The notes beneath the pieces were generated by a model that was not told where the DNA came from, searched no databases, and worked only from the letters and a program-made list of their open reading frames with translations. A DNA stretch of 64,000 nucleotides from Escherichia coli (lineage in GTDB: Bacteria; Pseudomonadota; Gammaproteobacteria; Enterobacterales; Enterobacteriaceae), in NCBI RefSeq assembly GCF_036507355.1, contig NZ_AP027877.1; one strand, given 5' to 3'. The position numbers were made by a program, and so were the translations under genes. This document shows, piece by piece, positions 25,591-27,964 of the stretch. Position 1 is the first letter of the stretch. Every line of letters begins with the position of its first letter.

Positions 25591-27131
25591 AACACTCAAA
25601 GAAAGAGGTAATTTTAGAATGAAATTATCTGTGATGATTATTAATACACTGCAGAGAAATAAAAAACAATCTGAAGCATGCTCTGAAACATCCTACTCTG
25701 TCACTCTAATGATGGCACCTTGCTCTTCTTATAAAGAAGGGAACAATTAAGAATATTAAATTTTCAAACTTTCATCAACTTCACATCAAGAAATTAAAAA
25801 ATTTAAACATTAATCTAAATAATAAAAACCTGATCACATAATCGGGTACGATTTTATCCGATAACTATAATGCTATAACTCTGGGAAATGGTTGGAATAC
25901 ACCGCTGGGTGCCATCTCTTTTTACGCTGCCCGAGCGAGTAGTAAGTTAAATAATGATACCAGACACGAAGGTACGAGCTATCAGGTCGCCTATAATAAA
26001 TATCTAGTACAAACAGCCACTCGATTTAGCGTGGCCGCCTGGCGTTATGCTTCGCAGGATTACAGGACATTCAGCGACCATCTTTACGAAAATGATAAAC
26101 ACTATCATCAGAGTGATTATGATGATTTTTATGATATTGGCAGAAAAAATAGCCTTTCTGCCAATATTATGCAACCTTTATCCAATAATCTGGGAAATGT
26201 ATCATTAAGTGCGCTTTGGCGGAATTACTGGGGGCGAAGTGGAAATGCTAAAGATTACCAATTCAGTTACTCCAATAACTGGCAACACATTAGTTATACT
26301 TTCTCTGCCAGCCAATCTTATGATGAAAATAATAAAGAAGAGGAGCGTTTTAATCTGTTTATCTCCATTCCTTTCTACTGGGGGGATGATATTGCCAAAA
26401 CACGTCACCAAATTAACTTATCGAATTCGACCTCATTTTCCAAAGATGGCTATTCCTCCAACAATACTGGAATTACTGGCATAGCCGGTGAACATGATCA
26501 GTTAAATTATGGTATATATGTTAATCAGCAACAACAAAATAATGATACCTCGCTTGGTACGAATTTAAGCTGGAGAACTCCCATCGCCATAATAGATGGC
26601 AGCTATAGTCATTCTAAAAACGCCTGGCAAAGTGGTGGAAGTATTAGTAGTGGATTAGTTGTCTGGCCCGGTGGTATTAATATCACTAACCAGTTATCCG
26701 ATACATTTGCAATTCTGGATGCGCCTGGGTTAGAAGGTGCACATATTAATGGACAAAAATACAATCGAACAAACAGCAAAGGCCAGGTTGTTTACGACCT
26801 GATAATACCTCATCGTGAAAACCATCTGGTACTTGATATAGCAAACAGTGAAAGTGAAACAGAATTGCAGGGCAATCGTCAAATTATTGCACCTTACCGT
26901 GGAGCAGTTTCTTATGTGCAGTTTACAACTGACCAACGTAAGCCCTGGTATATACAGGCACTGCGTCCCGATGGTTCGCCATTAACCTTTGGCTATGACG
27001 TACTGGATCTCCAGGAAAATAATATTGGAGTCGTTGGCCAGGGTAGTCGCCTTTTTATTCGCGTAGATGAAATTCCGGTGATGCTGCCAACTTACTGATT
27101 TAGTGTATGATGGTGTTTTTGAGGTGCTCCA

Positions 27132-27407
27132 GTGGCTTCTGTTTCTATCAGCTGTCCCTCCTGTTCAGCTACTGACGGGGTGGTGCGTAACGGCAAAAGC
27201 ACCGCCGGACATCAGCGCTATCTCTGCTCTCACTGCCGTAAAACATGGCAACTGCAGTTCACTTACACCGCTTCTCAACCCGGTACGCACCAGAAAATCA
27301 TTGATATGGCCATGAATGGCGTTGGATGCCGGGCAACAGCCCGCATTATGGGCGTTGGCCTCAACACGATTTTACGTCACTTAAAAAACTCAGGCCGCAG
27401 TCGGTAA
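27132..27407 (+). CDS. insA: IS1 InsA
   Basis: 91-aa [43 protein letters not shown]...; the A-run TTAAAAAAC -1 frameshift site lies near its 3' end. Confidence 0.9.
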
Positions 27408-27829
27408 CCTCGCGCATACAGCCGGGCAGTGACGTCATCGTCTGCGCGGAAATGGACGAACAGTGGGGCTATGTCGGGGCTAAATCGCGCCAGCGCTGGC
27501 TGTTTTACGCGTATGACAGGCTCCGGAAGACGGTTGTTGCGCACGTATTCGGTGAACGCACGATGGCGACGCTGGGGCGTCTTATGAGCCTGCTGTCACC
27601 CTTTGACGTGGTGATATGGATGACGGATGGCTGGCCGCTGTATGAATCCCGCCTGAAGGGAAAGCTGCACGTAATCAGCAAGCGATATACGCAGCGAATT
27701 GAGCGGCATAACCTGAATCTGAGGCAGCACCTGGCACGGCTGGGACGGAAGTCGCTGTCGTTCTCAAAATCGGTGGAGCTGCATGACAAAGTCATCGGGC
27801 ATTATCTGAACATAAAACACTATCAATAA
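27326..27829 (+). CDS. insB: IS1 InsB (transposase made as an InsAB' frameshift fusion)
   Basis: 167-aa ORF overlapping insA in the -1 frame. Confidence 0.9.
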
Positions 27830-27964
27830 GTTGGAGTCATTACCGAAATTCCCACTGGAATAAAAGTTGCTCTCAATGATGAACAGAACTTATTCTGTAC
27901 TATTACTTTTCAACACGTTATCGATGAAAACAAAACATATATATGCCAGTAAAAGGAGTTTACT

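Follow-up and report, generated by a model that had tools for sequence, protein, structure and literature searches.

A truncated fimbrial usher between rpsT and nhaR in Escherichia coli, the probable 3′ remnant of a Yeh-like operon after an internal deletion and an IS1 insertion

The locus studied here carries a fimbrial usher gene reduced to about its second half, with neither a major pilin nor a chaperone gene upstream. It lies in a 64-kb stretch of DNA (hereafter the window), an E. coli-type chromosome segment in reverse orientation to K-12. The question it raises is how the front of a chaperone-usher operon was lost. A preliminary description proposed that the effector-like gene immediately upstream, together with its AT-rich flanks, had replaced the 5′ part of an ancestral operon. 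We examined the remnant, its junctions and its relatives, and find that the operon was shortened by a different route.

The usher remnant and its island

Between rpsT and nhaR the window contains a low-GC island at approximately 23870-28950 (GC 0.26-0.43, against 0.50-0.58 in the flanks), which holds espX1, the interval with the usher remnant and a 319-aa ORF. The genes of the region are as follows.

19293-22109, minus strand: ileS, followed in gene order by ribF
23422-23685, plus strand: rpsT; the low-GC island begins beyond it
24169-25590, plus strand: espX1, a 473-aa ORF and pentapeptide-repeat T3SS effector-like gene, named espX1 in all related loci
25842-27076, plus strand: usher pseudogene, part 1; the frame is open from 25842 and homology runs from 25845, that is from codon 374 to the first two bases of codon 784
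27853-27952, plus strand: usher pseudogene, part 2, from the third base of codon 784 to codon 816, with the TAA stop at 27950-27952
27965-28924, plus strand: adhesin-position gene, last of the operon, an intact 319-aa ORF in the place of a tip adhesin
28962-29885, minus strand: nhaR, followed in gene order by nhaA and dnaJ

The espX1 product gives a weak Pfam match to Pentapeptide_4, and promoter and terminator scans of 25400-28100 stayed at chance level. Further along, between nhaA and dnaJ, lies the type I toxin locus mokC/hokC (Hok/Gef-type), so named in relatives; its ORF occupies 31589-31831 of the window and ends in MKQHKAMIVALIVICITAVVAALVTRKDLCEVHIRTGQTEVAVFTAYESE. Over 24 kb of this side of the window (29000-53000), the closest of the 5426 complete E. 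coli genomes in RefSeq is 99.4% identical.

That the fragment is an usher is certain from its homology. It matches Pfam Usher (PF00577) with E=2.2e-83, over profile positions 201-549 of 549 only, so that the domain is incomplete, and its spliced translation also matches PapC_C (E=1.7e-9), a domain that in the DNA itself is split at codon 784 by an IS1 element. The intact orthologue carries Usher, PapC_C and, at residues 24-159, PapC_N; no PapC_N match was found by Pfam in the fragment. In agreement with the preliminary description, what survives is therefore the C-terminal half, and its frame opens at 25842, directly after a TAA at 25839-25841. The coding sequence present (25845-27076 plus 27853-27952) amounts to codons 374-816 of an 816-residue chaperone-usher outer-membrane usher, or 1332 bp and 443 codons free of stops. 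By tblastn, part 1 is 96.6% identical to residues 374-785 of the O157 usher and part 2 matches residues 780-816; spliced across IS1, with one copy of the target repeat removed, the translation is open to its natural stop. The preliminary description had put the loss at more than 400 N-terminal residues. The loss is real but measures 373, leaving 54% of the protein.

The best match of the fragment among solved structures is FimD (E=3.5e-34), aligned from FimD residue 368 to the C-terminus. Given the published FimD domain limits, this residue falls beyond the N-terminal domain and the plug, within the barrel. The beta-barrel and C-terminal domains of FimD and PapC ushers (3RFZ, 7LHG) are homologous to the remnant, whereas the remnant begins only at the equivalent of that residue. 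It thus keeps the distal part of the barrel and the C-terminal domains; its head has no start codon, and the signal peptide, the N-terminal domain on which chaperone-subunit complexes dock, the plug and the first part of the barrel are gone as well. Judged by this anatomy, the remnant would be a pseudogene unable to form an outer-membrane assembly pore.

The missing genes do not lie elsewhere in the window. Searched by tblastn with the pilin, the chaperone and usher residues 1-373 of an intact operon, the whole 64 kb gave no match (best E>2). This bears out the reported lack of a chaperone or major pilin upstream and leads us to reject a hidden or frameshifted pilin, chaperone or usher N-terminal half, whether in the interval or in the rest of the window. 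Since the pilin and chaperone are gone too, no Yeh-like pilus would be made from this locus.

Comparison with intact operons and known fimbrial types

In genomes that keep the whole operon (O157:H7, O145 and others), the island is ordered rpsT-espX1-pilin-chaperone-usher-adhesin-nhaR. O157:H7 Z869 (locus L001), like Sakai, encodes a fimbrial protein of 177 aa, a chaperone of 227 aa, an usher of 816 aa and the adhesin-position gene; by Pfam, the partners in intact relatives are a pilin (PF00419) and a chaperone (PF00345 and PF02753, PapD_N/PapD_C). The window is collinear with L001 from rpsT through espX1 to L001 position 3644, 45 bp before the pilin ATG, and collinearity picks up again at L001 6087, where usher codon 374 begins. 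Two further features follow from this alignment.

25591-25844, plus strand: the part of the espX1-pilin intergenic region that is kept, collinear with L001 to position 3644 (the pilin CDS runs from L001 3689)
25845-25847, plus strand: deletion junction with GGT microhomology, joining intergenic DNA to usher codon 374, placed base by base against O157:H7

The two loci differ here by a deletion of 2445 bp with 3 bp (GGT) of microhomology, which took the pilin and chaperone genes together with 45 bp of leader in front of them and the first 373 usher codons. The lost leader reaches up to the pilin start codon, so any ribosome-binding site within it has been removed too. The junction contains no foreign DNA.

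This comparison bears directly on the proposal that espX1 and its AT-rich flanks arrived horizontally and overwrote the 5′ part of an existing chaperone-usher operon. The proposal has a basis in the window itself, where espX1 and its flanks are strongly AT-rich (GC 0.26-0.34) and directly abut the truncated usher. However, six full-operon genomes (O157:H7 Z869, Sakai, O145 RM9872, MZ1211, 18KM2445 and 042) have espX1 at the same position and in the same orientation, upstream of the pilin gene, and in a divergent allele of 86% identity (L012) a pentapeptide-repeat gene likewise precedes genes for pilin, chaperone and usher, now decayed. Up to the junction, moreover, the window is homologous to the espX1-pilin intergenic region. 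With espX1 already upstream in intact loci and the flanks collinear, the change is a simple internal deletion and not an insertion or replacement; espX1 is the upstream neighbor of the operon in intact and deletion alleles alike and lies outside the rearrangement. We consider an overwriting of the operon by espX1 hardly credible. The preliminary description was right that this is the remnant of an ancestral chaperone-usher operon without its 5′ part; the replacement it envisaged is not supported, and the locus is not evidence of an effector gene displacing part of an operon.

The operon belongs to a catalogued type. Wurpel et al. [quoted passage not shown] ECs_0022 is the usher at the matching locus in Sakai. 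The window shares with this cluster the site between nhaR and rpsT/espX1, the 3′ half of the usher (97% DNA and 96.6% protein identity to O157:H7) and the downstream gene, but lacks the pilin, the chaperone and usher codons 1-373 and has IS1 in codon 784. On these grounds of locus and similarity we regard the remnant as a disrupted allele of the 'Yeh-like' gamma4 type. It is also already annotated: in relatives, PGAP labels the fragment 'fimbria/pilus outer membrane usher protein; incomplete; missing N-terminus', and thousands of E. coli genomes, among them CUVET24-CCU22 (ACPZ59_RS19030), carry the pseudogene with the same junction and 1332-bp remnant as the window. The PGAP-annotated alleles, unlike the window, have no IS1 in the remnant. 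The fragment is a known leftover of a cryptic fimbrial operon, in all likelihood non-functional, and, beyond its correct annotation, matters little.

Two other systems invite comparison. K-12 yehDCBA is a paralogous pilin-chaperone-usher-adhesin operon, and the intact Yeh-like usher is 58% identical to YehB (b2109) over its full length; yehDCBA, however, lies at another chromosomal locus, its genes are annotated complete and the adhesins are unrelated in sequence. The second is the 'Yeh-like (Yhl)' pilus yhlABCD (PMC12778044), whose adhesin YhlD, cloned from Sakai, has W142 and S51 in its receptor-binding domain and which is almost confined to phylogroup E. By contrast, the 319-aa ORF of the window has no tryptophan after the signal peptide, the Sakai gene at the adhesin position is a pseudogene, and roughly two-thirds of genomes contain homologous DNA. 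What is published on YhlD (W142, S51, phylogroup E) thus appears not to fit the locus of the 319-aa ORF, and we do not equate Yhl with the window operon, using the name of Wurpel et al. throughout. The Sakai Type-3-like adhesin ECs_1277 gave no PDB match.

The IS1 insertion and the downstream gene

The preliminary description treated 25842-27952 as one continuous usher frame. This does not stand, as 36% of that interval is an IS1 element, unmentioned there.

27069-27076, no strand: IS1 target-site duplication, left copy, GAAATTCC, 8 bp
27077-27844, plus strand: IS1, 768 bp, with an exact left-end match, insA at 27132-27407 and the insB frame to 27829
27845-27852, no strand: IS1 target-site duplication, right copy, GAAATTCC, 8 bp

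The element is complete, with InsA and InsB ORFs, imperfect terminal inverted repeats and an 8-bp direct repeat, within the 8-9 bp that characterize IS1 target duplications. Of its 768 positions, 2 differ from K-12 IS1A, and it is the sole IS1 copy in the window. It sits in usher codon 784, beyond which the last 33 codons and the stop resume at 27853-27952. Contigs with the identical 319-aa product match the window base for base along 5888 bp before the insertion and with 1-2 mismatches in the 7080 bp beyond it, yet they carry a single GAAATTCC, an empty site without IS1. The IS1 junction was found in none of the 5426 complete E. coli genomes and in none of the GTDB representatives. The insertion is therefore strain-specific and recent, and it now stands between the downstream gene and the usher fragment with any promoter before it.

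K-12 also has an IS1 in this island, and we considered whether the window could be the progenitor of that arrangement through IS1-mediated adjacent deletions. IS1A of K-12 lies in the same nhaR/rpsT island, is of the same family and orientation, and stands beside the terminal 138 bp, all that K-12 retains of the adhesin-position gene. In contrast to the window, the K-12 locus (L004 1739-2530) shows no target duplication. Its IS1A is bordered by sequence equivalent to window positions 23950, just past rpsT, and 28787, so that K-12 has neither espX1 nor any of the usher. The window element and IS1A have no flank in common, and near-identical relatives of the window have no IS1, from which it follows that the window insertion is recent and independent of K-12 IS1A; we reject the progenitor scenario. 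The K-12 arrangement in itself points to an IS1-associated deletion and not to simple insertion.

More widely, IS1 has entered this AT-rich island at least four times independently, in every case in the same orientation relative to the operon. The sites are the 3′ end of the usher (window 27077-27844), the adhesin-position gene of 042 (L018 4871-5636), a different position in the adhesin-position gene of W137 and OXA-181 (L019, about 3709-4478) and K-12 IS1A (L004 1748-2515). IS1 thus repeatedly targets the island, and the junction peculiar to the window strain might be used to mark its lineage.

The gene downstream of the usher is called 'fimbrial family protein' or 'hypothetical' in relatives and is a pseudogene in several. 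Its product matched no Pfam family and no PDB sequence, YehD (9N4G) being among the structures searched; in a search of 5.8 billion proteins, all its homologues had at least 86% identity, and its AlphaFold model has a pLDDT of 28.8. The window and several deletion alleles keep the ORF whole, and with the pilin, chaperone and usher assembly genes gone it is orphaned. In two of five distinct deletion alleles it has a stop or frameshift. Its lesions comprise a stop in CUVET24-CCU22, a frameshift in S1-KEN-03-A and IS1 in 042 and W137. In O157:H7 (L001 7431-8391; Sakai ECs_0019, L016 1327-2287) an extra A, giving A8 where the window has A7, shifts the frame near nt 285-292, so that even the 'intact' O157 operon would be without an adhesin-position product.

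Lesions are scattered over the rest of the island as well. O145 RM9872 has an internal stop in its full-length usher (L009 4081-6531), the chaperone of 042 is frameshifted (L018 1605-2287), and espX1 is frameshifted in several deletion-allele strains (L013, L014, L019). Strain 2017-02-2CC carries a divergent version of the whole island, with about 86% DNA identity and its own pentapeptide-repeat gene (L012 1081-6594), in which the chaperone and adhesin-position genes are frameshifted and the usher lacks its C-terminus. Overall, the island gives the picture of a cryptic fimbrial cluster that is breaking down along many separate paths. The window is an example of how such decay proceeds stepwise, by a deletion and then an IS1 insertion, with separate frameshifts in other lineages.

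Frequency and history of the deletion allele

Taken together, the evidence makes it very probable that the fragment is the 3′ remnant of a 'Yeh-like' gamma4 operon that underwent the 2445-bp deletion and afterwards, in this lineage only, the IS1 insertion. We infer the following order. The ancestral island would have been espX1-pilin-chaperone-usher-adhesin. A single illegitimate deletion of 2445 bp across GGT would then have taken the 45 bp of leader, the pilin, the chaperone and usher codons 1-373. Very recently, and only in the lineage of the window strain, IS1 would have transposed into usher codon 784, duplicating 8 bp of target.

The deletion is far more widespread than the insertion. 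Probing 5426 complete E. coli genomes with 300 bp across the junction, we found the identical junction, as a one-piece match, in 2424 (45%); the deleted 2445-bp segment is present in 1203 of the 5426, and these two counts make up almost all of the 3637 genomes with any probe match. The junction was identical in all eight deletion-allele loci compared. Around it, differences from the window occur in blocks along the island, and the flanks of deletion alleles fall into two haplotype families on the left and two on the right, which occur in all four pairings (window 25400-26400 against L002, L003, L013 and L014). This pattern suggests that the allele, common as it is, is also old and has recombined onto different flanking haplotypes, with recombination as the likely cause of the mosaic.

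An identical junction on flanking haplotypes that are deeply diverged on both sides (dS about 0.08) could also mean that the deletion recurred at a hotspot, rather than arising once and then being moved by recombination. Yet the junction offers only the 3 bp of GGT, and neither a long repeat nor the end of a mobile element that might steer repeated events, and the flanks show the mosaic blocks typical of homologous exchange. We hold recurrence to be very unlikely and favor a single deletion with subsequent recombination.

One observation sits poorly with simple decay. The usher remnant is free of stops in the window and in eight of the nine other loci, the remaining deletion allele having two stops, and dN/dS between divergent deletion alleles is 0.13-0.40, a low value not expected of a long-dead pseudogene. 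This raises the alternative that the remnant is under selection, either because the orphan adhesin-position product is exported and put together by the paralogous Yeh chaperone and usher, the fragment acting as a transcribed leader or functional C-terminal polypeptide, or because loss of the pilus is advantageous and the allele has spread by recombination. The open frame in nine of ten alleles, the low dN/dS, the identical junction on at least four flanking-haplotype combinations in 45% of genomes and the intact 319-aa ORF in the window and several deletion alleles would all be in line with this, as would the cross-operon assembly ('fimbrial promiscuity') discussed for Shigella and E. coli (PMC6854044). 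On the other hand, the adhesin-position gene is broken in two of the five deletion alleles and one usher fragment has its two stops; the head of the fragment has neither start codon nor signal peptide; and in the window strain IS1 cuts the downstream gene off from the fragment and from any promoter further up. Recombination with intact alleles is a simpler account of the low dN/dS. We judge selection on the remnant very unlikely.

Under the single-deletion reading, most of the divergence behind the low dN/dS probably built up in intact copies of the gene, and exchange downstream of the junction then brought it into the deletion alleles. Recombination with intact alleles is thus the probable reason both for the low dN/dS and for the remnant being stop-free in nine of ten alleles. 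A related proposal is that the 2445-bp deletion is a fimbrial-loss allele, spread by homologous recombination over many backgrounds and not a product of neutral decay only. We regard this as doubtful. Were it true, the allele could reflect selection against the Yeh-like pilus with espX1 and the orphan adhesin-position gene kept, and the clean usher remnant would reflect recent spread or residual constraint.

An 8-bp indel at 25758-25765 marks one of the two left-flank families, and WB61 appears to retain about 40 bp more of the usher, which may indicate a different breakpoint.
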